Shown here one piece after another: positions 2,460-59,660 of a DNA stretch of 64,000 bases. Within the stretch, counting starts at the first letter, position 1. Each line of letters starts with the position of its first letter. The translations under genes and the position numbers were made by a program. Source of the DNA: Acidimicrobiia bacterium (GTDB lineage: Bacteria > Actinomycetota > Acidimicrobiia > Spongiisociales > UBA11373); the NCBI GenBank assembly GCA_036478235.1, contig JAZGDZ010000040.1, positions 12,841 through 76,840 on the forward strand, in the 5' to 3' direction. Below the pieces are notes generated by a model. The model worked only from the letters and a program-made list of their open reading frames with translations. It searched no databases and was not told where the DNA came from.

Positions 2460-3491
2460 TTAGAGGCGGCCCGCGGTCGTCGTCAGGATGTCCTGGAGCA
2501 TGTCGAACTCCTCCAGGCACCGACCCGAGCCGATCACCACCGAGTGCAGCGGCCGATCAGAGGTGACGACCGGGGTGCCGGTCTCGTTGGCGATCCGAAC
2601 ATCGAGGCCGCGCAGCAACGCGCCGCCACCGGTGAGGACGATCCCGCGTTCCATGGCATCCGCCGAGAGCTCCGGCGGGGTCTTGTCGAGGCAGTACTTG
2701 ACGGCGTCGACCATCCCCTGGACCGGCTCCTCGATCGCCTCGCGCACCTCGGCCGCCGTGATGATGACGGTCTTGGGGAGGCCGGTGACGAGGTCACGTC
2801 CCCGAATCTCCGCATTTGGCTCGTCACTGAAGGGCCAAGCCGAGCCGATGGCCATCTTGAGCTGCTCCGCTGTGCGGTCCCCCAGCAGGAGGTTGTACTC
2901 CTTCTTCACGAAGTCGACGATCGACTCGTCGATCTCGTCACCGGCGATGCGAGAAGTGCGGGCGACAACGATGCCCCCGAGGGAGATCACCGCCACCTCG
3001 GTCGTGCCTCCGCCGATATCGATTATGACGGAGCCGGCCGGCTCGTGGACCGGGAGGTCCACACCGATCGCCGCAGCCATCGGCTCCTCAATCGTGTAGG
3101 CGCGACGGGCGCCGGCGTGATAGGCCGCCTCCTCCACCGCGCGGCGCTCCACGCCGGTGATCCCGGACGGCACGCACACGATGATGCGGGGACGGGCCCA
3201 ACGACGCGGCTGCACCTTCTTGATGAAGTAGCGCAGCATCTTTTCGGTGATGTCGAAGTCGGCAATGACACCGTCGCGCAGCGGCCGAATCGCCTGGATG
3301 TGAGACGGAGTGCGACCGATCATCCGTTTGGCCTCGAGGCCCACCGCCAACGCGGAGTTGTCGCGCGTGTTGATGGCCACCACCGACGGTTCGTTGAGCA
3401 CGATGCCTTGTCCGCGGACGTAGACGAGCGTGTTCGCCGTTCCGAGGTCGATCGCCATGTCACGGGTCGCCAGCGACATCAATGAGGACAT
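2460..3491 (-). CDS. mreB: Rod shape-determining protein MreB (actin homologue)
   Basis: 343 aa with MSSLMSLATRDMAIDLGTANTLVYV...DIGGGTTEVAVISLGGIV, the actin/Hsp70 fold motifs of MreB. Confidence 0.92.
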   Translation of the reverse strand: MSSLMSLATRDMAIDLGTANTLVYVRGQGIVLNEPSVVAINTRDNSALAVGLEAKRMIGRTPSHIQAIRPLRDGVIADFDITEKMLRYFIKKVQPRRWARPRIIVCVPSGITGVERRAVEEAAYHAGARRAYTIEEPMAAAIGVDLPVHEPAGSVIIDIGGGTTEVAVISLGGIVVARTSRIAGDEIDESIVDFVKKEYNLLLGDRTAEQLKMAIGSAWPFSDEPNAEIRGRDLVTGLPKTVIITAAEVREAIEEPVQGMVDAVKYCLDKTPPELSADAMERGIVLTGGGALLRGLDVRIANETGTPVVTSDRPLHSVVIGSGRCLEEFDMLQDILTTTAGRL

Positions 3492-3538: not shown

Positions 3539-3937
3539 CTATGCGAAGAAAAGCCGGATTTCGCGCTCCGCGCTGTCGAGCGAATCCGATCCGTGCACGA
3601 TGTTCTCCGTGATGACGGTGCCGAAGTCGCCGCGAATCGTTCCGGAAAGTGCCTCCCCGGGGTCGGTTGGACCCATCAGCGACCGGACCACGGACACGGC
3701 GTCCGGGCCGGACCATTCAATGGCCACGACCGGGCCGCTCGTGATGAAGGACACGAGGTCGGCGAAAAACGACTTGTCGGTGTGCTCGGCGTAGTGGCGC
3801 CCGGCGAGATCCTCATCGATGGTGAGCATCCGCATCCGCTCCAGGCGCAGGCCCTCGTTTTCGAAGCGGCCGATCACCTCGCCGACCAACCCGCGCCGAA
3901 CACCATCGGGCTTGACCATCACGAAGGTGTGTTCCAT
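3539..3937 (-). CDS. ndk: Nucleoside diphosphate kinase
   Basis: [26 protein letters not shown]...NIVHGSDS. The ORF track extends to 3985 (MTDDYSP...), but the conserved NDK N-terminus begins at MEHTF. Confidence 0.9.
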
Positions 3938-3980
3938 CGCTGTGCTCTCTTCGGTGGATCCGGCGGGAGAGTAGTCATCG

Positions 3981-4080
3981 GTCACCAGTCACCAGTCACC
4001 AGTCACCAGTCACCAGTCACCAGTCACCGAAGAGCCATAACGCGTTCTGGCTGGGGACTGGAAGCTGGAGACTGGAGACT
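3981..4080. repeat. Heptanucleotide tandem repeats: (GTCACCA/CAGTCAC)x~7 at 3981-4027, then GACTGGA-like x~4 at 4056-4080. Together they form an imperfect inverted pair
   Basis: Read directly: ggtcaccagtcaccagtcaccagtcaccagtcaccagtcaccagtcacc...ggactggaagctggagactggagact. Sits between the folC stop and the ndk start. Confidence 0.9.
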
Positions 4081-4082
4081 CT

Positions 4083-5363
4083 TCAGAGCCCCAGCGCGGT
4101 CCGCGCCTCCCCGGCCACGTAGAGCGAGCCGGTCACGAGCACAGGGGCCCCCGATTCCCGCGCCGCGGCGACGGCTTCGGCCACCGATCCGTGGGCCTCG
4201 GTCGGCAAGCCGAGGCTCCGTCCTGCCACGGCTGCGACTTCGCCGGCGTCCCGGGCTCGCCCGGACCGGGCCGCCGCCGCATGGACCCGTTCCACCAGGC
4301 CGTCGAGATGTTCGAGCATGCTCTCAACGTCCTTGTCGGCCATGACACCCAATACCAGGACCCACCGCTTGGAAGGGAACTCGAGCCGTAGCGAACCGGC
4401 CAACGCGGCCATCGCATCCGAATTGTGAGCACCATCGATCATCAGCAATGGGTCATCGTCCAGGATCTCCATCCGGCCGGGAGTCGTGATCGTTGCTGCC
4501 GCCTCGCGCACACCGGCCTCATCGAGGGAGCGGCCGAACAGGGCCTCCACCGACGCCACCGCGACCGCAAAGTTGTCTACCTGATGACGGCCCCGGACTC
4601 GCAGTTCGACGTCGCTGTACTCGTCGAAGGCCGACCGCAGATCAAAGGCCCAGCCTCTCGAAGCCCAGCGCAGGTCGGTGACCTCGAACTCGACACCTTG
4701 CCGAAACCACCGGCCGGCGCGTTCTGCGGCTATGTGTTCTGCCCTCTCCAGGGCCTCCGGGGGCAGATCCCCCGTTACCAGCGCAGCGCCCTCGTCGAGT
4801 ATCGCCAGCTTCTCCCCGGCGATTTCTCCCAGCGAGTCTCCGAGGTACTCGGTGTGCTCGAGCCCGATAGTCGTCACGACCGCCACCTCCGAGTCCGCTG
4901 CGTTGGTGGCATCGAGCCTTCCGCCGAGCCCGACCTCGATCACGGCCACATCGACCGACCTCTCGGCGAACCAGGAGTGGGCCATCGCCGCGGTCAGCTC
5001 GAAGTACGTGGCACCATCGCCGGTGCGCTCCGCGAGCATGTCGGCGATGGGGGCGATCTCGGAGATGACCGCGGCGAGCTCGTCGCCTGTCATGACCTGC
5101 AGCCCGTACTCGTATCGTTCTTCGACACGTTGCAGGTGGGGTGATGTAAACGTCCCCGGGGTCAAGCCGTGGCCCGATAGCAATTGGGCCGTCATCCTCA
5201 CCGCACTGGTCTTTCCGTTGGTCCCGGCGACATGGACGATCGGATAGCCGAGTTCGGGGTTCGCCAGCGCGTCGAGCAGCGCGGTGATCCTGTCCAGACC
5301 CGGCTTGAGGCCCCGGCCGATATGGCGATCGAGGAAGGCGATGGCTGCTGTGTAGTCCGTCGT
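4083..5363 (-). CDS. folC: Folylpolyglutamate synthase/dihydrofolate synthase
   Basis: Mur-ligase family. The ORF-track start (5201) is a GTG downstream of the P-loop. Hand translation upstream in frame gives ...YTAAIAFLDRHIGRGLKPGLDRITALLDALANPELGYPIVHVAGTNGKTS, open up to the valS TAG at 5364-5366 with no ATG/GTG/TTG. The 5' boundary is therefore uncertain. Confidence 0.75.
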   Translation of the reverse strand, partial: TTDYTAAIAFLDRHIGRGLKPGLDRITALLDALANPELGYPIVHVAGTNGKTSAVRMTAQLLSGHGLTPGTFTSPHLQRVEERYEYGLQVMTGDELAAVISEIAPIADMLAERTGDGATYFELTAAMAHSWFAERSVDVAVIEVGLGGRLDATNAADSEVAVVTTIGLEHTEYLGDSLGEIAGEKLAILDEGAALVTGDLPPEALERAEHIAAERAGRWFRQGVEFEVTDLRWASRGWAFDLRSAFDEYSDVELRVRGRHQVDNFAVAVASVEALFGRSLDEAGVREAAATITTPGRMEILDDDPLLMIDGAHNSDAMAALAGSLRLEFPSKRWVLVLGVMADKDVESMLEHLDGLVERVHAAAARSGRARDAGEVAAVAGRSLGLPTEAHGSVAEAVAAARESGAPVLVTGSLYVAGEARTALGL

Positions 5364-8215: not shown

Positions 8216-8580
8216 AGAGCGTCCGCAAATAGGCGGACGCTCTTTCGCGATGTTGATGGCTCTTCGCCGTACGGCTCATCGCTGGTTTGGCTACGGCTTT
8301 CGGGATTTGGCTCCGTATTTGGCTGCGGCGTTCGGGTCCTATCCGGCCCCGAGACGCCTCCGCATGGATGAGCCGCCCTGCGGGCGGCGCTCCGTTCTAC
8401 GTTCGAGTCCTGCTCGGCCTGGAAACGCCTCCGCATGGTGGATCCGCCCTTCGGGCGGACAGCGTTCTACCTGTTCGGCCCCGAAGAGCCTCCGCATGGT
8501 TGTGCCGCCTTGTAGGCGACGCAGTGCTCTACTGCCCGAGGGCCCCAGCCCCAGGCCGCCGAGTCCGCGCCTATCGGCGC
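8216..8580. repeat. Array of modular intergenic repeats. A hairpin module (AGAGCGTCCGC-loop-GCGGACGCTCT, 8216-8243), then an ATGGCTCTTCGCCGTACGGCTCATCGCTGG module, then three tandem ~60-bp units (8338-8527) each with a GCCGCCC-TGC-GGGCGGC hairpin, then a GGCCGCCGAGTCCGCGCCT module
   Basis: Direct reading. The same modules recur at 12048-12179, 36378-36600, 40323-40670 (reverse complement), 50955-51085 and 51923-52092. Confidence 0.9.
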
Positions 8581-9877: not shown

Positions 9878-10495
9878 TCAGCCGGCCACTGCCTTGAGTT
9901 CGCGACCTTCGAGCACCGTGTCGACCACTCCGTACTCCTTCGCCTCCGGGGCGGTCATCCAGAAGTCGCGGTCGGTATCGGTACTGATCCTCTCGAAATC
10001 CTGGCCCGTGTGGCTTGCCAGTATCTGGTTCATCTCCTCCCGCACTCGCAGGATCTCGCGGGCGTGGATCTCGATGTCTGTCGCCTGCCCCTCGAGACCA
10101 CCGATGTGGGGCTGATGGATCATCACCCTGGCGTGCGGCAACGCAAAGCGCTTCCCGGGAGCGCCGGCGGCGAGCAGCACCGCCGACGCCGAGGCGGCCT
10201 GCCCCATGCAGTAGGTGGCGACGTCGGGCTTGATGAAGTGCATCGTGTCGTAAATGGCCATGAGGGAAGTCATCACGCCACCGGGTGAGTTGATGTACAG
10301 CGCTATGTCCTTATCGGGCTCGTCACCCTCGAGATGGAGCAGCTGGGCCATTATGAGATTGGCCACGGTGTCGTCGATCGGAGTCCCGAGAAAGATGATC
10401 CGCTCGCTGAGCAGCCGGCTGTAGATGTCGAAGGCGCGTTCACCGCGACTCGTCTGCTCGACGACCGTGGGGACGAGATAGCTGTTGTTGATCAT
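9878..10495 (-). CDS. clpP: ATP-dependent Clp protease proteolytic subunit
   Basis: 205 aa with a ClpP Ser-His-Asp fold (GQAASMAS-like GQAASAS). ATGA overlap with tig. Confidence 0.93.
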
Positions 10496-11952
10496 TCGTC
10501 GACCTCCGCGGACACCCCCCCGTCAGTGGGGCGGTCCTTTTGATTGATTTGGTTGCTTGATTCGGCCGCGTCCCTCGCCTCGCCCGACCGCTCTCCGTCC
10601 CCGTCGGCCTCATCGGCCGCTCCCAGCGGTGCGGGCTCGTCGATTTCGATCTCCAGATCGATCTCGTTGCCGCCGACGTCGACCGGAACCGCCAGCTCGA
10701 GGACACGGTCGACAGCCTTGCGGCGTAGGATATCACCGGATAGAGCCTGTTCTCGATCACCTTCGGCGAGCGCGCTGCGATACTCCTCCACCTCCATCCC
10801 CGACACGCCGGCCAGCTGAGTGATCGCCTCTTCCACTTCTGCGTCATCGACCTCGATCTTCTCGAATTCAGCCACGGCTTCGAGCATGACCCGCGTCTTG
10901 AGGTTGAGTTCGGCCTGTGACCTGAGATCGGCGAGGAACGATTCTTGATCCTGCCCGGTGAGTGCCAGGTACTGGCCGAATTCGACCTCCTGTTGCTCGA
11001 GCCGGTGAGCGAAGCGATGAAAGACTGAGTCCATCTCCACCTGGAGCAGTGCCTCCGGAATGGTCAGATCGAGGTCGTCGAGCAACTCCTGGAGCAGCAG
11101 TCGCTCGTAGTCGGCGCGGAGACCGGAAGTGCGAATCCTGATCAGCTGCTCCTCCAACTCCCGCCTCATCTCGGTGGCGGTCTCGAACTCGGTCATGTCG
11201 TCGACCCACTCGTCGGTGAGCTCGGGAAGCCGCTTCGCCTTCACCTGTTTGACCAGCACGCGCACACTGACCTCGGTCCCGCCGTCGTCGCCGAACGACG
11301 GCGGAAGAGTCGTGACGAACTCCTCGATTTGCCCGGCGGCCTTGCCGCGAAGCGCGTCGTCCATGCCGTTCAGAAACATCCCCGATCCGACCTCGAACAG
11401 CATGTCGTTGGCCGATCCGGCGGCGAACTCCTCGCCGTCCTTGGAGGTCGCCACGTCGACGATGGCGAAGTCACCGTCGAACGCCTCACGGTCCACGTCT
11501 TCGAGCTCGGCGAACTGGTTGCGTATGCGCTCGATCTGATCCTCGACGGCGGCGTCGTCCACAGGAGGGGCGTTCAACTCCACCTTGCGCTTCCGGTACT
11601 TCGGAAGCTTCTTGACGGTCGGCCACAGGGTGACGAGAACATCGACCTCGACGCCCCCATCCCGATCCCTGATGTCTTCGAGCTTCGGCATGACCGCCGG
11701 GGCGAGTTCTGTCTCGGCAATGGCGTCCGTGAGCACGGCCGGAAGGGCATCGTCGATTGCCTCTCGCCGCAGGGTGTCCGCCCCCACCGCTGATTCGATC
11801 ACCTTGAGCGGCGCCCTGCCGGGGCGGAAGCCCTTGATCTTGACCTCACCGGCGAGCCGTCGCGCCGCCGTCTTCTTGGCGGCGTCGATCGCAGCCTCTT
11901 CGATGGTCAGCGTGAGGATCCGCTCGAACGGACCGGCCTTTCGCACCTTCAC
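10492..11952 (-). CDS. tig: Trigger factor
   Basis: PPIase chaperone architecture with an acidic C-terminal tail. Start assigned to GTG 11952, preceded by GGAGGAG. The ORF-track N-terminal extension covers a repeat element. Confidence 0.85.
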
Positions 11953-12047
11953 TTCTGCTCCTCCATCGAACACAACAGAGCGAGACGGCGCCCATGCCGC
12001 CTCGCCGAATCTCATCGCCCTTCACCATACGGCCCATCACCAGTCTG

Positions 12048-12179
12048 GCTCCGACGCTCGGGATCTGGCTCCGAGACGCCTCCGCACGGTGGTGCCGCCC
12101 CAAGAGGCGGCGCCATATTCTACGACCCGGGTCCCGGCCCAGGCCGCCGAGTCCACGCCTGTCGGCGTGTGCTCTTCGG
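12048..12179. repeat. Copy of the modular intergenic repeat (GGCTCCG...GAGACGCCTCCGCACGG...GCCGCCGAGTCCACGCCTGTCGGCG)
   Basis: Sequence similarity to 8280-8580. Confidence 0.8.
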
Positions 12180-13764: not shown

Positions 13765-13835
13765 CTCGTGCGGGCGGTGGGATTCGAACCTTCTCCGCGC
13801 CACCGGCGAGCCGCGATGCTCGCTCCCTCAAGAGA
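13765..13835 (-). pseudogene. Degenerate duplicate of the tRNA-Leu 3' half (T-arm and acceptor 3' strand) fused to a shared GGAGCGAGCATCGCGG...CGCGGAGAAGG module
   Basis: Reverse complement ...GGGAGCGAGCATCGCGGCTCGCCGGTGGCGCGGAGAAGGTTCGAATCCCACCGCCCGCACGAG. The last 24 nt equal the 3' end of tRNA-Leu at 13937-13960. No 5' half. Confidence 0.6.
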
Positions 13836-13936
13836 GTGAGGACGAGAGTAGCTGGGGATGAGGGGAGTGGGGCGTTGTGGCGAGGGGAGCTTCGAGGCCG
13901 AGCAGGACTCGAAGTTCTCCGACCTCGTATGCGTCC

Positions 13937-14025
13937 TGGTGCGGGCGGTGGGATTCGAACCCACAGCGGGTCTGAGACCCACCGGATCCTAAGTCCGGCG
14001 CCTATGCCGGTTCGGCTACGCCCGC
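13937..14025 (-). tRNA. tRNA-Leu (TAG), class II with a long variable arm, CCA encoded
   Basis: Reverse complement GCGGGCGTAGCCGAACCGGCATAGGCGCCGGACTTAGGATCCGGTGGGTCTCAGACCCGCTGTGGGTTCGAATCCCACCGCCCGCACCA. Confidence 0.85.
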
Positions 14026-14084: not shown

Positions 14085-14157
14085 GGGTCGCTAGCTCAAC
14101 CTGGCAGAGCAACGGACTCTTAATCCGCAGGTTCGGGGTTCGAATCCCCGGCGACCC
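14085..14157 (+). tRNA. tRNA-Lys (CTT)
   Basis: GGGTCGCTAGCTCAACCTGGCAGAGCAACGGACTCTTAATCCGCAGGTTCGGGGTTCGAATCCCCGGCGACCCA. Confidence 0.8.
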
Positions 14158-14264
14158 ACCGGCTCGCGAACGAATCCCGCGGCACATCGCCGCCGACTGG
14201 CGGCGACGCTTGCTCCCCACCAATCGACGAGAACCTCATCCCCCGCGGCTCGCATCGGCGCCTC

Positions 14265-14331
14265 CGGACGGAGCGAGCATCGCGGATCGCGAGAACGCGG
14301 AGAAGGTTCGAATCCCCGGCGACCCACCGGC
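14265..14331 (+). pseudogene. Duplicate of the tRNA-Lys 3' half preceded by the same GGAGCGAGCATCGCGG...CGCGGAGAAGG module
   Basis: cggagcgagcatcgcggatcgcgagaacgcggagaaggttcgaatccccggcgacccaccggctcgcgaacgaat. About 65 nt are repeated directly from 14130-14198. Confidence 0.6.
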
Positions 14332-14363
14332 TCGCGAACGAATTCCGCGGCACATCGCCGCCG

Positions 14364-14389
14364 ACTGGAGACTGAGGACTGGTGACTCT
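14364..14389. repeat. Heptamer tandem repeat GACTGGA GACTGAG GACTGGT GACTC
   Basis: Direct reading. Adjacent to the USP gene stop. Confidence 0.8.
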
Positions 14390-28221: not shown

Positions 28222-28290
28222 TTGGTGGGTCCCCAGGGACCCCCCTCCGGCAGCGGCGGCAAAGCCGCCTCCGCCCTCTCCCCCCTCAGG

Positions 28291-28325
28291 GAGGAGAGCA
28301 CACAAAGACCCGCCCATCGAGGGCG
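28291..28325. terminator. Bidirectional intrinsic terminator hairpin serving the ABC operon (+) and tmRNA (-)
   Basis: caaagacccgccc-tcgat-gggcgggtctttg, a perfect 13-bp stem with U/A-rich flanks. Confidence 0.8.
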
Positions 28326-28333
28326 GGTCTTTG

Positions 28334-28683
28334 TGGAGGTGCGGGGAGTCGAACCCCGGTCCTCTGAGGCTTCGGCGTCGGCATCTCCGAGCGCAGCCGA
28401 TAGCGAGCTTCGGAACGCGGGGCCCTATCGGCGGGTGGTCCTGCGCCCTAGCCGGAGTTGGTCTTGACCCGCCGGTCCCGGCATCCCGGCGGAGGCATCC
28501 CCTATTGCGACGCCCGGACCTGGTGAGAGGGGAACCCTCCAGACGGACGGACTGCGTTGTTAGGCAGCCAGTGCGAAGTTGTCTTCGGCACTTGGTTTGT
28601 TTCCCGGCTCTTTAACGAGGACTCCGGGGACCTCGGCTCGCTTCCGACGCTTCAACCCTCAAAGTCGAAACCATGTCACCCCC
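28334..28683 (-). ncRNA. ssrA: tmRNA (ssrA)
   Basis: Reverse complement starts GGGGGTGACATGGTTTCGACTTTGAGGGTTGAAGCGTCGG and ends GACCGGGGTTCGACTCCCCGCACCTCCA. Tag ORF ...GCCGAAGACAACTTCGCACTGGCTGCCTAA gives (A)EDNFALAA*. Adjacent to smpB. Confidence 0.9.
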
Positions 28684-28751
28684 GTGAGGGTGCGCAAAGC
28701 GCACTCGCAAGATACAACGATCGGCAGGCGAAGGTGGATTCCTGAAGGAGG

Positions 28752-28905
28752 GAAAGTCTCCAGTCTCCAGCCAGCGTCGCTGTCGATCGCCCGCCCCACG
28801 ATCGCCCGCAAAGCGATTGCCCGCCGAGCCCAGCGAGGCGATTGCCGGAGGCTCTCTGGGAGCCGACGCTTAGCAAGTTGCCAGCTGCCAGCTGCCAGTA
28901 GCTTC
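28752..28905. repeat. Cluster of short tandem repeats: (TCTCCAG)x2, CGATCGCCCGC/GCGATTGCCCGCC family x3-4, (GCCAGCT)x3
   Basis: gtctccagtctccag...cgatcgcccgccccacgatcgcccgcaaagcgattgcccgcc...gaggcgattgccgg...ttgccagctgccagctgccagtagc. Confidence 0.85.
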
Positions 28906-28919
28906 TCAGTCCACGCTCC

Positions 28920-29077
28920 TGTGCCGCATCGCCCGTTGCATCCCCATGCCCATGGCTCTTCGGCTCACACCTCATCGCAGTGTCGCCCGGGTCCCTGCCC
29001 GGGCGACCGAGATGCAACGATGTGCCACCGCTACATCACATCAATCGATGTCCTTGTGCCGCATCGCCCGTTGCATC
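28920..29077. mobile_element. 112-bp hairpin-containing insert (repeat-family module ATGGCTCTTCGGCTCACACCTCATCGCAG + GTCGCCCGGG-tccctg-CCCGGGCGAC hairpin) flanked by a 23-bp direct duplication (TGTGCCGCATCGCCCGTTGCATC) at the smpB 3' end
   Basis: Copies at 28920-28942 and 29055-29077. The second copy encodes MQRAMRH of SmpB, and the insert supplies the final KDID* codons. The outer copy would encode ...MQRAMRHRSVD*. Confidence 0.7.
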
Positions 29078-29499
29078 TCTCTGTCGGCCTGGCGGCGCCT
29101 GAGGGTCTCGCGCTTGTCACGATGCGCCTTGCCCTTGCCGAGGCCGAGCTCGATCTTGGCCTTGCCGTCCTTGAAATACAGCTTCGTCGGAATGAGGGTC
29201 AAGCCGCGTTCGGCGAGCTTCGACGCGATCTTGCTGATCTCGCGCTTGTGCAGCAGGAGCTTTCGCTCGCGCTCCGGCTCGTGCCCCCCGTCCCTGGCGA
29301 ACTCGTACGGCGCGATGCGCAGGCCGACAAGCCACAGCTCGCCGCCACGCACGACGCCATAGGAATCCTTGAGGTCGGCGCGACCCATCCGCAGACTCTT
29401 GACCTCGGAACCGAGAAGAACTATCCCGGCCTCGAAGGTCTCCGAGATCTCGTAGTTGAAGCGGGCTCTGCGGTTGGTGGCAATCGTCTTGACGCTCAT
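29041..29499 (-). CDS. smpB: SsrA-binding protein SmpB
   Basis: MSVKTIATNRRARFNYEI...GSEVKSLR...KLLLHKREI, a canonical SmpB. Start ATG 29499. Confidence 0.92.
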   Translation of the reverse strand: MSVKTIATNRRARFNYEISETFEAGIVLLGSEVKSLRMGRADLKDSYGVVRGGELWLVGLRIAPYEFARDGGHEPERERKLLLHKREISKIASKLAERGLTLIPTKLYFKDGKAKIELGLGKGKAHRDKRETLRRRQADREMQRAMRHKDID

Positions 29500-36377: not shown

Positions 36378-36600
36378 AAAGAGGGCGCACCGACAGGCGC
36401 GGACTCGGCGGCCTGGGGCTGGGGACCCCGGGCCGTACAGCGATGAGCCGTAAGGCGAAGAGCCATCGACAAAGAGGGCGCGCCGCTAGGCGCGGACTCG
36501 GCGGCCTGGAGCGAGCGCCGTAGCCAAACCAGCGATGAGCCGTAAGGCGAAGAGCCATCAGCATCGGTTGAGAGTCCGCTTCATAAGCGGACACTCAACG
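36378..36600. repeat. Two tandem ~94-bp copies of repeat module (AGAGGGCGCRCCG-AGGCGCGGACTCGGCGGCCTGG...CAGCGATGAGCCGTAAGGCGAAGAGCCATC) plus a terminal hairpin (TTGAGAGTCCGC-ttcataa-GCGGACACTCAA)
   Basis: Direct reading. Homologous to 50955-51085 and, in reverse complement, to 8216-8300. Confidence 0.85.
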
Positions 36601-40322: not shown

Positions 40323-40670
40323 GCCAGGAGTCTGCTGAGTGATGCCGTTGCTCAGATCGTGGAACACAGCGCCGCCCGCAGGGCGGCTCAATCATGCGGA
40401 GGCGCTTCGGGGCCGAGCAGGACCCGAACGCCGCAGCCAAACCGGGCCAGGCGCGCCAGTCGCCAGGATCTCGGGTTCGCCACTCCTCGCGCAGGAATGG
40501 CGGGACCGTGGACACCGCTAGTGGCGATGTAGATCACAGCGCCGCCCGCAGGGCGGCACGTCCATGCGGAGGTGCTTCGGGGTCGAGCAGGACTCGAACG
40601 CCGCAGCCAAATACGTAGCCAAATACGGAGCCAAATCTGGACGTCGAGATGAGTGACATGTATTGCTCAG
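40323..40670. mobile_element. MITE-like non-autonomous element (~350 bp) with ~17-bp imperfect terminal inverted repeats (GCCAGGAGTCTGCTGAGT ... TGCTCAGCGGGCTCCCAG) and an internal tandem duplication of a ~130-bp hairpin unit
   Basis: Termini read directly. Interior is the reverse complement of the 8280-8420 modules. A shorter derivative lies at 51923-52092. Confidence 0.7.
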
Positions 40671-50954: not shown

Positions 50955-51085
50955 GAGAGGGCGCGCCGACAGGCGCGAACTCGGCGGCCTGGGGCTGGGG
51001 CCCCCGGGCCGCACAGCGATGAGCCGTATGGCGAAGAGCCATCGACAATGCTGAGAGCGTCCGCCTATTTGCGGACGCTCTCAGC
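50955..51085. repeat. Copy of repeat module (AGAGAGGGCGCGCCGACAGGCGCGAACTCGGCGGCCTGGGGCTGGGG...CAGCGATGAGCCGTATGGCGAAGAGCCATCGACAA) plus a 15-bp-stem hairpin GCTGAGAGCGTCCGC-ctattt-GCGGACGCTCTCAGC
   Basis: Direct reading. The hairpin abuts or overlaps the stop codon of the 51081-51278 gene, so it is a likely terminator. Confidence 0.85.
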
Positions 51086-51922: not shown

Positions 51923-52092
51923 GCCAGGAGTCTGCTGAGTAATGCCGTTGCTCAGATCGGCGGCCAGACGCGCCACTCGCCAGGACCTCGGATTCGCCAC
52001 TCCTCGCGCAGGAATGGCGGGACCGAGGACACCGCGAGCGGTGATGGATGGTCGCCGAGATGAGTGACATGTATTGCTCAGCGGGCTCCTAG
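51923..52092. mobile_element. Short (~170 bp) derivative of the 40323-40670 MITE-like element with the same termini
   Basis: gccaggagtctgctgagtaatgccgttgctcag...gagatgagtgacatgtattgctcagcgggctcctag. Its right end supplies the last 5 codons and the TGA of the 52078-52458 gene. Confidence 0.7.
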
Positions 52093-58325: not shown

Positions 58326-59210
58326 ATGCCAGAACTCCCCGATGTCGCCGTCTACATCGAGCGGCTCGAAGCCCGGATCGTGGGCGAGCCTCTCGAGCGG
58401 ATCAGGCTGGCCAGCCCTTGGGTGCTGCGTACCTTTGACCCACCCGTGTCTGCCGTCGAGGGAAAGACGGTCACCGGACTGCGGCGCATCGGAAAGCGGA
58501 CCGTCCTGGAGCTGAACGACGATCTGTTCCTGGTGATCCATCTCATGGTCGCCGGCCGCCTCCGCTGGCGGGACCGGGGAGCCGCCGTACCGAAGAAGCG
58601 CGGGCTGGCCGCATTCGACTTCCCTTCCGGGACGGTCCTCTTCACAGAGGAGGGGACCAAGAAGCGGGCGAGCATCCATGTCGTCGCCGGCGAGGACGGG
58701 CTTGCCGAGCACGACCGCGGCGGGCTCGAACCGCTGGAAATGACCGTTGCCGATTTCACCGGTGCCCTGCGGCGAGAACGTCACACGCTCAAGCGCTCCC
58801 TAACCGACCCACGCCTCGTTTCAGGCATCGGTGGCGCCTACGCCGACGAGATCATGCACCGTGCCCGCCTGAGCCCGATCGTGATGACGGACCTGCTCTC
58901 CGACGCCGATCTCGAACGGCTGTACGGCTCGATCGGCGAAGTGCTGGTCGAATGGACGGATCGCCTGCGCGCCGAGGTCGGCGATGGATTCCCCGAAAAG
59001 GTGACCGCATTCCACGACGAGATGGCGGTGCACGGCAAGTTCGGGTCGGAGTGCCCGGTCTGCGAATCTCCGGTGCAGCGGATCGTCTATGCCTCGAACG
59101 AGACGAACTACTGCCCCGGATGTCAGACGGGCGGCAAGATCCTGGCCGACCGAGCCCTCAGCCGGCTGCTGAAGGACGACTTCCCGAGGACTCTCGAAGA
59201 CTTGGAGTGA
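58326..59210 (+). CDS. Formamidopyrimidine/endonuclease VIII family DNA glycosylase (Fpg/Nei)
   Basis: [10 protein letters not shown] (catalytic Pro2/Glu3), H2TH, and a C-terminal zinc finger CPVCESPV...CPGCQ. Confidence 0.85.
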
Positions 59211-59237: not shown

Positions 59238-59441
59238 TTGGGGCCCCGCTCGGCGGAGGAGGGCCGACCATGTCTTCTCGAGGCGTCTCGACCCCACTCG
59301 GTCTCGAGCCGCCTCTCAATGGAGCCTCGCCAGGCTCGGCGCTCCCCGCTACGCCTGTTCGGCTCGAGCGAAGCGAGGGACGAAGTCGGCCCGGGTGAAG
59401 ACAAGGACGACTTTCCGCGGACACTAGAGGACCTCGAGTAG
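59238..59441 (+). other. In-frame downstream ORF (TTG start in the track) ending in a synonymously recoded copy of the last 12 Fpg codons ([12 protein letters not shown])
   Basis: 59405-59440 aaggacgactttccgcggacactagaggacctcgagtag versus 59172-59210 aaggacgacttcccgaggactctcgaagacttggagtga. Same frame as fpg. Confidence 0.3.
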
Positions 59442-59444
59442 CGA

Positions 59445-59660
59445 CTGGCCGTTGGCCGTTGGCGTCCGGCGATCCTCGCTTCGCTCGGGGCCACCGAAAC
59501 GGGCGATCCGAGCTTCGCTCGGAGCGATCCCCCGGCGAGCACAGCGAGGCGATTGCACGTATGCGATCGCCCGCCGAGCGCAGCGAGCCGATTGCACGTA
59601 TTCGATCGCCCGGCGAGCACAGCGAACCGATTGCCACGGCTCTTGGCTACTGGCTACTGG
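59445..59660. repeat. Repeat block: (GGCCGTT)x2, CGAGCGAAGCGAGG/TCGCTTCGCTCGG motifs, 2.5 tandem ~41-bp units (CGAGCRCAGCGARSCGATTGCACGTATKCGATCGCCCG), (GGCTACT)x2
   Basis: Direct reading. The (GGCTACT)2 repeat overlaps and supplies the stop of the galE-like gene (…SSQ*). Confidence 0.85.

Follow-up and report, generated by a model that had tools for sequence, protein, structure and literature searches.

The question raised by this locus is how the gene for the SsrA-binding protein SmpB came to be followed, shortly beyond its stop codon, by a second copy of its own 3' end, and what lies between the two copies. The sequence analyzed, called the window in the following, is a stretch of 64,000 nucleotides from an Acidimicrobiia bacterium. 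Its smpB product is 100% identical to P0001 (SsrA-binding protein SmpB, PF01668), and the nearest SmpB sequences among species-representative genomes show 81-82% identity to it. The gap between the smpB stop codon and the tmRNA gene amounts to 357 nt, compared to 39-190 nt in most relatives (about 50 related genomes); three relatives with larger gaps (L003, L005, and L026) contain ordinary genes and no integrases in them. The 23-mer TGTGCCGCATCGCCCGTTGCATC occurs exactly twice in the window, at the end of smpB and again behind an intervening span of 112 nt (28943-29054), of which 98 nt lie between the inner stop codon and the outer copy. No further matches with up to three mismatches were found in the 64 kb, the expectation from 100 shuffles being 0. 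An earlier note on this DNA had interpreted the arrangement as a small element of a repeat family that had inserted into the end of smpB, duplicating 23 bp of its target and replacing the C-terminal residues and stop codon. The insertion itself is borne out, and so is a duplicated gene end on either side of it, the working tail and stop codon belonging to the proximal copy and an unused second gene end being left downstream. Both 23-mer copies and the 112-nt insert with its perfect hairpin and repeat module B (Table 1) are likewise confirmed, and the note proves to be right in substance, if imprecise on the mechanism.

Table 1. Features around the 3' end of smpB, given in window positions and listed in the direction of transcription.
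Feature	Position	Strand	Remarks
smpB coding sequence	29041..29499	-	152 aa + TGA, ends ...EMQRAMRH-KDID*; from ORF and translation
Inner (proximal) exact 23-mer (core)	29055..29077	-	codes for (E)MQRAMRH + first base of tail
Working tail and stop, AAGGACATCGATTGA	29041..29055	-	K-D-I-D-TGA
Variable left region including anti-core	29009..29040	-	29009-29019 is the exact 11-nt reverse complement of 29069-29079 (GAGATGCAACG)
Perfect 10-bp GC hairpin with 6-nt loop (stem P2 of X)	28982..29007	-	GTCGCCCGGG-tccctg-CCCGGGCGAC
Module B (..GCGATGAGGTGTGAGCCGAAGAGCCAT..)	28950..28981	-	portion common to the dispersed repeat family
Right junction of X, GGGCATGGG	28943..28951	-	abuts outer copy; conserved in L104 and L098
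Outer (distal) exact 23-mer copy	28920..28942	-	
Displaced, untranslated tail and stop, AGGAGCGTGGACTGA	28906..28920	-	R-S-V-D-TGA
Heptamer array, CTGGCAG x ~3	28879..28898	-	directly 3' of outer stop
tmRNA gene (context)	28331/28333-28683	-	same strand as smpB

Read on the gene strand, the order of elements is ...GAGATGCAACGGGCGATGCGGCAC-AAGGACATCGATTGA - 98 nt - GATGCAACGGGCGATGCGGCAC-AGGAGCGTGGACTGA - (CTGGCAG)x3 ... tmRNA. The complete repeat extends beyond the 23-mer to 37 nt (28906-42 vs 29041-77), spanning the last 12 codons of smpB and an aligned TGA, with the TGA codons of both copies in register and 31 of the 37 positions identical. The outer copy reads ...MQRAMRHRSVD-TGA, the inner one, which is the end of smpB itself, ...MQRAMRHKDID-TGA. 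All six mismatches are located within the last 14 nt and none in the 23-nt core, a distribution with a probability of C(14,6)/C(37,6) ~0.0013 under uniform decay. Readthrough of the TGA into the outer copy was ruled out because of another in-frame TGA 22 codons further on, and a tandem duplication of a 135-bp segment because the second unit matches in the first 37 nt only. A scan for promoter and terminator consensus sequences over positions 28250-29150 returned 0 sites. Heptamer arrays are also found after smpB in relatives, composed of GCGATTA in L083, CAGTCGG in L100, and CAGCTGA in L098, and other genes of the window genome are followed by similar arrays at the matching position behind their stop codons.

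The insert appears to harbor a structured, non-coding element of about 73 nt, designated X, which consists of a 5' anti-core, the GC hairpin, and module B. The complementarity of the anti-core to the core extends imperfectly to about position 29028, and the hairpin recurs identically in L098 and with compensatory changes in L001, two related lineages discussed below. X shows no plausible protein-coding ORF, as those of the insert are only short and overlap the repeat. The module B motif ATGGCTCTTCGGCTCAC (28952-28968) has four further near-copies in the window vs 0.2 expected, and an nhmmer profile of hairpin and module B detected X at 28950-29012 (E = 2.4e-17) together with distant family copies at 36403-68, 36497-560, 50979-51044, and 8255-84. 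These relatives of hairpin and module B at four other sites are about 70-80% identical to X, and no second copy of the whole insert is present within the 64-kb window. The dispersed family thus consists of short, imperfectly palindromic intergenic modules in mosaic combinations, which is the hallmark of REP/BIME repeats. Rfam has no family for the insert or the family copies; only the tmRNA and tRNAs pass the gathering score, and the best score over the hairpin of X is 20.9 bits compared to a threshold of 72.2. As a side observation, module B (28950-28981, 36438-36467, 36530-36559, and 51014-51043) reads GAUGA, followed by a 3-bp stem with tetraloop and then GAAGAGCC; the dispersed copies have GCC/GGC in this stem and those linked to smpB (window, L098, L001, and L104) GGY/GCC, a full compensatory swap. 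A hammerhead ribozyme was considered for module B, which does contain the GAUGA...GAA core, and rejected in view of the wrong positions 3-4 and the lack of an Rfam match. Support is weak for a longer inverted smpB copy within the insert (p = 0.016), and nothing is built on it.

Both tails are typical of SmpB, as judged from the last four residues of the 120 closest SmpB proteins. Nearly all of these conform to a clade consensus of [KR][SD][IVL]D*, with RSLD in 56 cases, RSID in 23, RDID and KSID in 9 each, KSLD in 7, KDID in 4, and RSVD in 3. KDID-TGA, which the earlier note had taken for mere insert sequence, is therefore a genuine homologous SmpB gene end, and a plain 23-bp target-site duplication in which the tail was overwritten at random is excluded by its fit to the consensus. 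Moreover, the DNA of the inner tail matches that of L098 in 15 of 15 positions, which indicates that a homologous gene end either travelled with the unit or was swapped in. Which of the two tails is ancestral in the window appears ambiguous from these comparisons: the nearest relatives end in RDID, which differs by 2 nt (L104 tail) from the inner KDID and by 6 nt from the outer RSVD, and it is the outer copy, not the inner one, that sits in the heptamer context typical of gene ends.

A view on the related genomes, which were examined over a few kb each, shows that X follows smpB in four other Acidimicrobiia lineages (L104-L107, L098, L001, and L099) and is missing from most of the approximately 85 relatives, among them L083 and L100 (p ~0.7). 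In L104-L107 (four contigs from different samples, SmpB 83% identical to that of the window), smpB ends with ...RDID-TGA and is followed by 19 nt, the 73-nt X, and a second copy of 58 nt, which comprises core, tail, stop codon, and the same 19 nt; the copies are identical in 55 of 58 positions. A sister population represented by five contigs (L109-L113) has a single smpB end and no X. The flanks of the two populations are 96-98% identical over 1.7 kb and 1.1 kb, and their sole structural difference is an indel of 131 bp, corresponding to the 73-nt X plus the 58-bp repeat. The 19 nt represent a lineage-specific non-coding flank which is present in the empty allele as well. This allele could equally have arisen by precise deletion between the 58-bp repeats. 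It was further observed that some empty alleles (L110, 1676-1690, compared to L109) read GTTG-CTGC-GCTCTGCC at the insertion point and share the CTGC with the 5' end of X (CTGCATCTC), which leaves the left junction ambiguous by 4 nt and may represent microhomology. The gene after smpB and X is rnd in the L104 lineage, and the position beside the tmRNA gene, to which the earlier note had pointed, is incidental.

The same element occupies the same site in another species, L098, which is related to the window by 79% identity in SmpB, 74% in smpB DNA (55% at third codon positions), and 86% in tmRNA. Its smpB end consists of the core, AAGGACATCGATTGA, X, another core, and the displaced tail CGGGATGTCGATTGA, which corresponds to RDVD-TGA, and its hairpin and module B are identical to those of the window in 61 of 64 positions. 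In L001, X follows an smpB ending in RDVD*, and in L099, the sister of L098, a degenerate X (33/49, p = 0.003) follows KDID*, both without a second copy. These one-copy states, which partly represent the contrary cases named in the earlier note, are best read as older insertions from which the outer copy has been lost. The clean 23-bp target duplication of the note did not hold up, as the duplications of the window (with diverged tails), L098, and L104 measure 37, about 41, and 58 nt, and their identity segments 23, about 26, and 58 bp, respectively. The right junction, CCATGGGCAYSG followed by (AG)AGATGCA, is identical in all three lineages with two copies (window, L104, and L098), and the end of X and the start of the repeat accordingly appear to travel together.

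The structure of smpB, X, and second copy is present in three independent assemblies of the window species (window, L081/L092, and L082). Over 21 kb, the second assembly matches the window at 99.95% identity without any indels, and the third strain (L082) shows 99.6% identity over the shared smpB locus. L082 presents core, KDID*, X, a further core distinguished by a G-to-A SNP, KDID*, and X..., before the contig ends, i.e., at least two tandem units of 135 bp, compared to one in the window and L081, with the SNP marking the second core. Tandem copy number at the smpB end thus varies between strains as in MIRU/VNTR-type loci, and tandem units such as these would be the expected outcome of unequal exchange between the repeats. 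An empty site, which the earlier note had suggested looking for, was found in the neighboring lineage as the filled and empty pair of L104-107 and L109-113; there is none in the window species, all three assemblies of which are filled. A scan of JGI metagenomes with an exact 22-mer returned five chance matches in an unrelated gene, one different smpB, and no conspecific empty site. X is a discrete unit which is present, absent, or amplified among close relatives and located at the same junction in several species, and the tie of the repeat family to mobility proposed in the note is upheld by the filled and empty alleles of one lineage and by the same element and site in another species.

With somewhat better than even chances, X is a non-autonomous mobile repeat associated with smpB, which uses the conserved gene end to spread, by recombination or copy-choice rather than with a target-site duplication of fixed length. 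The unit moved would be the smpB end plus X, with X itself being non-autonomous, and the conserved block coding for MQRAMRH would be where recombination or copy-choice brings this unit into a resident smpB end; Campbell-type integration, synthesis-dependent strand annealing, and template switching are candidate routes, and the core/anti-core stem possibly positions the entry. The duplication would then be as long as the stretch over which incoming and resident gene ends are homologous, predicting 58 bp within a lineage, and 23 exact bp plus a diverged tail between lineages. An incoming unit could also swap the SmpB tail, and the direct repeats, once formed, would permit unequal recombination, leading either to tandem units or to precise loss. 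In the window, the gene would now terminate in the proximal copy (KDID-TGA), with the distal RSVD-TGA as an untranslated leftover. Some points weigh against this model. Homology-driven spread leaves the origin of the first arrangement of gene end, X, and gene end unaccounted for, 23 bp is at the lower limit for RecA-type recombination, and a circle of 131-135 bp would be highly strained. A single recent donor does not fit either, since the window and L098 share only about 53% identity in the left region from tail to hairpin, compared to 95-100% in its flanks.

The anti-core deserves separate consideration, as it pairs with the smpB codons for E-M-Q-R and fits the codon variant of each host: CAA/TTG in the window, CAG/CTG in L098 and L104, and GAG/CTC in L001. 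The perfect complements comprise 11, 8 (extended, -31 kcal/mol), 10, and 10 nt in the window, L098, L104, and L001, respectively; the cognate complement is the longest one for the cores of the window and L001, and L098 and L104 share the CAG type. Among 88 smpB loci examined, complements of at least 10 nt at the anti-core position are confined to those bearing X, and one other locus (L055) has such a complement at a different position. RNAalifold recovered the core/anti-core stem, the hairpin, and the 3-bp stem of module B from three lineages, with four pairs changed on both sides in these stems, 3-4 sequences being too few for statistics. The predicted core/anti-core stem encloses the tail and the stop codon, and may have a function in the 3'-UTR, result as a by-product from the copying of the unit, or act as a targeting device. 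The last option would turn X into a miniature mobile element guided by nucleic acid pairing, the anti-core of which pairs with the smpB core, fixes the start of the duplicated segment, and directs the insertion of the 73-nt structured RNA/DNA along with a surrogate gene end, neither terminal inverted repeats nor a recombinase site of its own being required. Such an element is regarded as unlikely. If it did exist, REP-like repeats would have a novel means of moving and of swapping C-terminal codons of an essential gene, and the duplicated ends of tRNA-Lys, tRNA-Leu, and fpg in the window (see below) would be further examples of one process. Base-pair targeting, if real, would also provide a testable model of repeat mobility in uncultured Actinomycetota, with a unit short enough to synthesize and a defined target.

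X might instead resemble a MITE, mobilized in trans by a transposase which makes long and variable target-site duplications, so that both copies of the gene end would be derived from the host. Duplications of this kind have a precedent in IS1549 and IS1634, which generate long direct repeats varying from 8 to 514 bp (PMC2266710), and X shares with MITEs and these elements the small, non-autonomous insert and the unusually long, variable direct repeats. Further points in favor are that inner and outer cores are more alike within than between genomes, and that both 58-bp copies of L104 are of the host type, including the 19-nt flank also found in the empty allele. However, X has no terminal inverted repeats, as inverted repeats are limited to its internal hairpin and the core/anti-core pair and its two ends are unrelated; all full copies seen are located at one target, the end of smpB; and no cognate transposase was found. 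None of the Pfam-annotated genes of L081, L092, L094, and L095, which cover most of the window, nor 10 further window ORFs, encodes a recombinase, transposase, or integrase, and no RAYT (Y1 HUH) transposase was among the window genes checked; an ORF at 10492-12015 yielded no match in an exact-protein look-up. Instead of short duplications of fixed length, 23-58 bp are encountered. The tails differ in 6 of 14 positions and the core in 0 of 23, and the identical in-frame surrogate tails of the window and L098 are impossible to obtain from a host-derived duplication, the inner tail not being derived from the outer tail of the host. A MITE-like origin is therefore considered improbable. Casposons and mini-casposons are comparable to X in their preference for the 3' ends of genes or tRNAs, in the target duplication, and in tandem copies at the duplicated site. 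They are distinguished by 31-nt terminal inverted repeats, a fixed 14-nt duplication, and a Cas1 integrase (PMC10359463), all of which X lacks.

A slightly poorer case can be made for a site-specific integrase, with the repeats as attL and attR and the unit as a miniature derivative that lacks an integrase, similar to a CIME, the attP of which carried the replacement gene end. CIMEs are elements which have kept attL and attR and have lost the integrase (PMC5704250). As in such integrative elements, the direct repeats come from the 3' end of the target gene, a block of identity gives way to functional, allelic tails, sequence travelling with the unit restores the gene, the displaced native end remains, and the tandem units resemble accretion at att sites; in addition, the 3' ends of tRNA-Lys and tRNA-Leu show similar short duplications in the window. 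However, only 73-112 nt lie between the repeats, which makes the unit two to three orders of magnitude smaller than integrative elements and leaves it without genes, and no integrase was detected at the locus or close to it, elsewhere in the window, or in the 3 kb following smpB of the approximately 85 relatives. Core and X are absent from IMG/VR, where scans with the exact core, a degenerate core, module B, and the arm of the tRNA inserts gave nothing save one chance match to a phage gene. Instead of a fixed att site, the identity block ranges from 23 to 58 bp, including the host-specific non-coding flank in L104, and independent deletion remnants cannot account for four lineages sharing the three-part X. 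Altogether, an integrase-derived unit seems distinctly unlikely.

Another explanation would regard X as an old, vertically inherited terminator or stabilizer in the 3'-UTR of smpB, with the second gene end added by local slippage or tandem duplication, the cores kept alike by gene conversion, and the absences representing losses. This would agree with the conserved three-stem architecture, in which compensatory changes affect the core/anti-core pairing, the hairpin, and the stem of module B, with L001 and L099, which contain X without a second copy, and with the tandem amplification in L082, which demonstrates that local slippage or unequal exchange occurs. The distribution of X does not follow the relatedness of the hosts, however. 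By base count, any two of the X sequences from the window, L098, and L104 share about 94-95% of their positions, while the host genes show about 74% nucleotide identity; L001 is the closer organism, with a tmRNA 95.5% identical to that of the window, and yet its X shows only about 69% identity, compared to 95% for the distant L098. Between the window and L098, X is even better conserved than the tmRNA, and the tail is identical in 15 of 15 positions across species sharing 55% of their third codon positions. Since X similarity contradicts host relatedness, these values argue for horizontal spread between lineages rather than inheritance. X is also lacking in most of the approximately 85 relatives, and its presence differs between populations which are 96-98% identical. 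A purely vertical history is accordingly considered distinctly improbable. Finally, an artefact of metagenome assembly joining two strain alleles is hardly conceivable, even though MAG contigs break at repeats (L082, L093, and L096 end inside them), because the structure is present in three independent assemblies, including the junction between X end and core, and homologous ones in L098 and four L104-type contigs from different samples, whereas the two copies share only 23 nt, and a chimeric join would still need junction-spanning reads. A diversity-generating retroelement was ruled out, since the differences between the copies are not A-specific and there is no reverse transcriptase nearby.

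REP/BIME and MIRU-type intergenic repeats are dispersed hairpin modules, and mycobacterial MIRU-VNTR units overlap stop codons. X agrees with them in consisting of short, non-coding, GC-rich intergenic hairpin modules with family copies at 8.2, 36.4 (two), and 51 kb, in overlapping the end of the upstream gene, and in a copy number that varies between strains. It is distinguished from them, as far as can be judged from their general features, by the target-complementary 5' segment, the gene-end duplication of 23-58 bp, and the unit of 131-135 bp, and also by its identity of about 95% between species with about 75% identical genes. X linked to smpB is best filed with the small REP/MITE-like elements, and is apparently specific for smpB. 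The spread of REP-like intergenic repeats is still poorly understood, and a member of such a family has been caught here with filled and empty alleles, long duplications of homology length, a segment complementary to the target, and a single preferred target, the end of an essential gene of trans-translation. Small non-coding elements can apparently swap the last codons and the stop codon of a conserved gene between lineages without disabling it, and the pseudo gene ends left behind may be misread by annotators.

Several gene ends other than that of smpB are duplicated in the window. A gene similar to fpg/mutM (58326-59210; PF01149, PF06831) has its last 12 codons and stop codon repeated 231 nt downstream (59172-59210 and 59403-59441, plus strand), the repeat coding for the same peptide and ending with TAG. 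All nine nucleotide differences between the copies are synonymous, suggesting that both evolved while coding for protein. Between them lies an insert of 192 nt, which is open in frame and includes repeat modules, an architecture matching that of the smpB end. For tRNA-Lys, the last 24 nt of the gene and the next 40 nt downstream occur twice, around a 104-nt insert, with 63 of 64 positions identical (14137-14200 and 14305-14368), and for tRNA-Leu, 26 nt of the 3' end occur twice around a 145-nt insert, with 25 of 26 identical (13936-13961 and 13765-13790). Homology between these two inserts extends over about 85 nt (79%), and each of them ends with ...GCGGAGAA directly before GGTTCGAATCC. A second strain shows the same structure of the tRNA-Lys duplication, and its contig ends inside tRNA-Leu. 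An independent duplication of an smpB end is present in L007, a distant member of the Acidimicrobiia with an SmpB of 71% identity, where ADREMQRAMRHRSID* is repeated as ADREMQRGMRYRSLDW with the stop codon lost (3409-3456 and 4541-4588); the copies flank an insert of 1.09 kb, which contains one gene for a 328-aa membrane protein on the opposite strand. In L083, the tmRNA gene contains NN and an internal partial duplication at about 3850-3870, which is most likely a scaffolding artefact of the MAG.

The intergenic regions of the window contain further repeats. Heptamer arrays are located at 3973-4028, 4051-4080, 28755-70, 28879-98, 33522-59, 44218-70, 59446-63, 59644-60, and ~14369-95, with units such as AGTCACC, CTGGAGA, TGCCAGC, CCTAATA, and others; they abut stop codons and bracket clusters of repeat modules. 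Additional intergenic repeat families occur at 8329-8519, 12051-12109, 40359-40611, and 51962-52046, at 59524-59634, and at 28784-28824. One of these families is made up of units of 59-85 nt containing CATGCGGAGGCG...GGACCCGAACG, and another of a 39-nt unit present 2.8 times with cores of the GCGATCGCC type, to which related 15-mers are found in the gap between smpB and the tmRNA gene.
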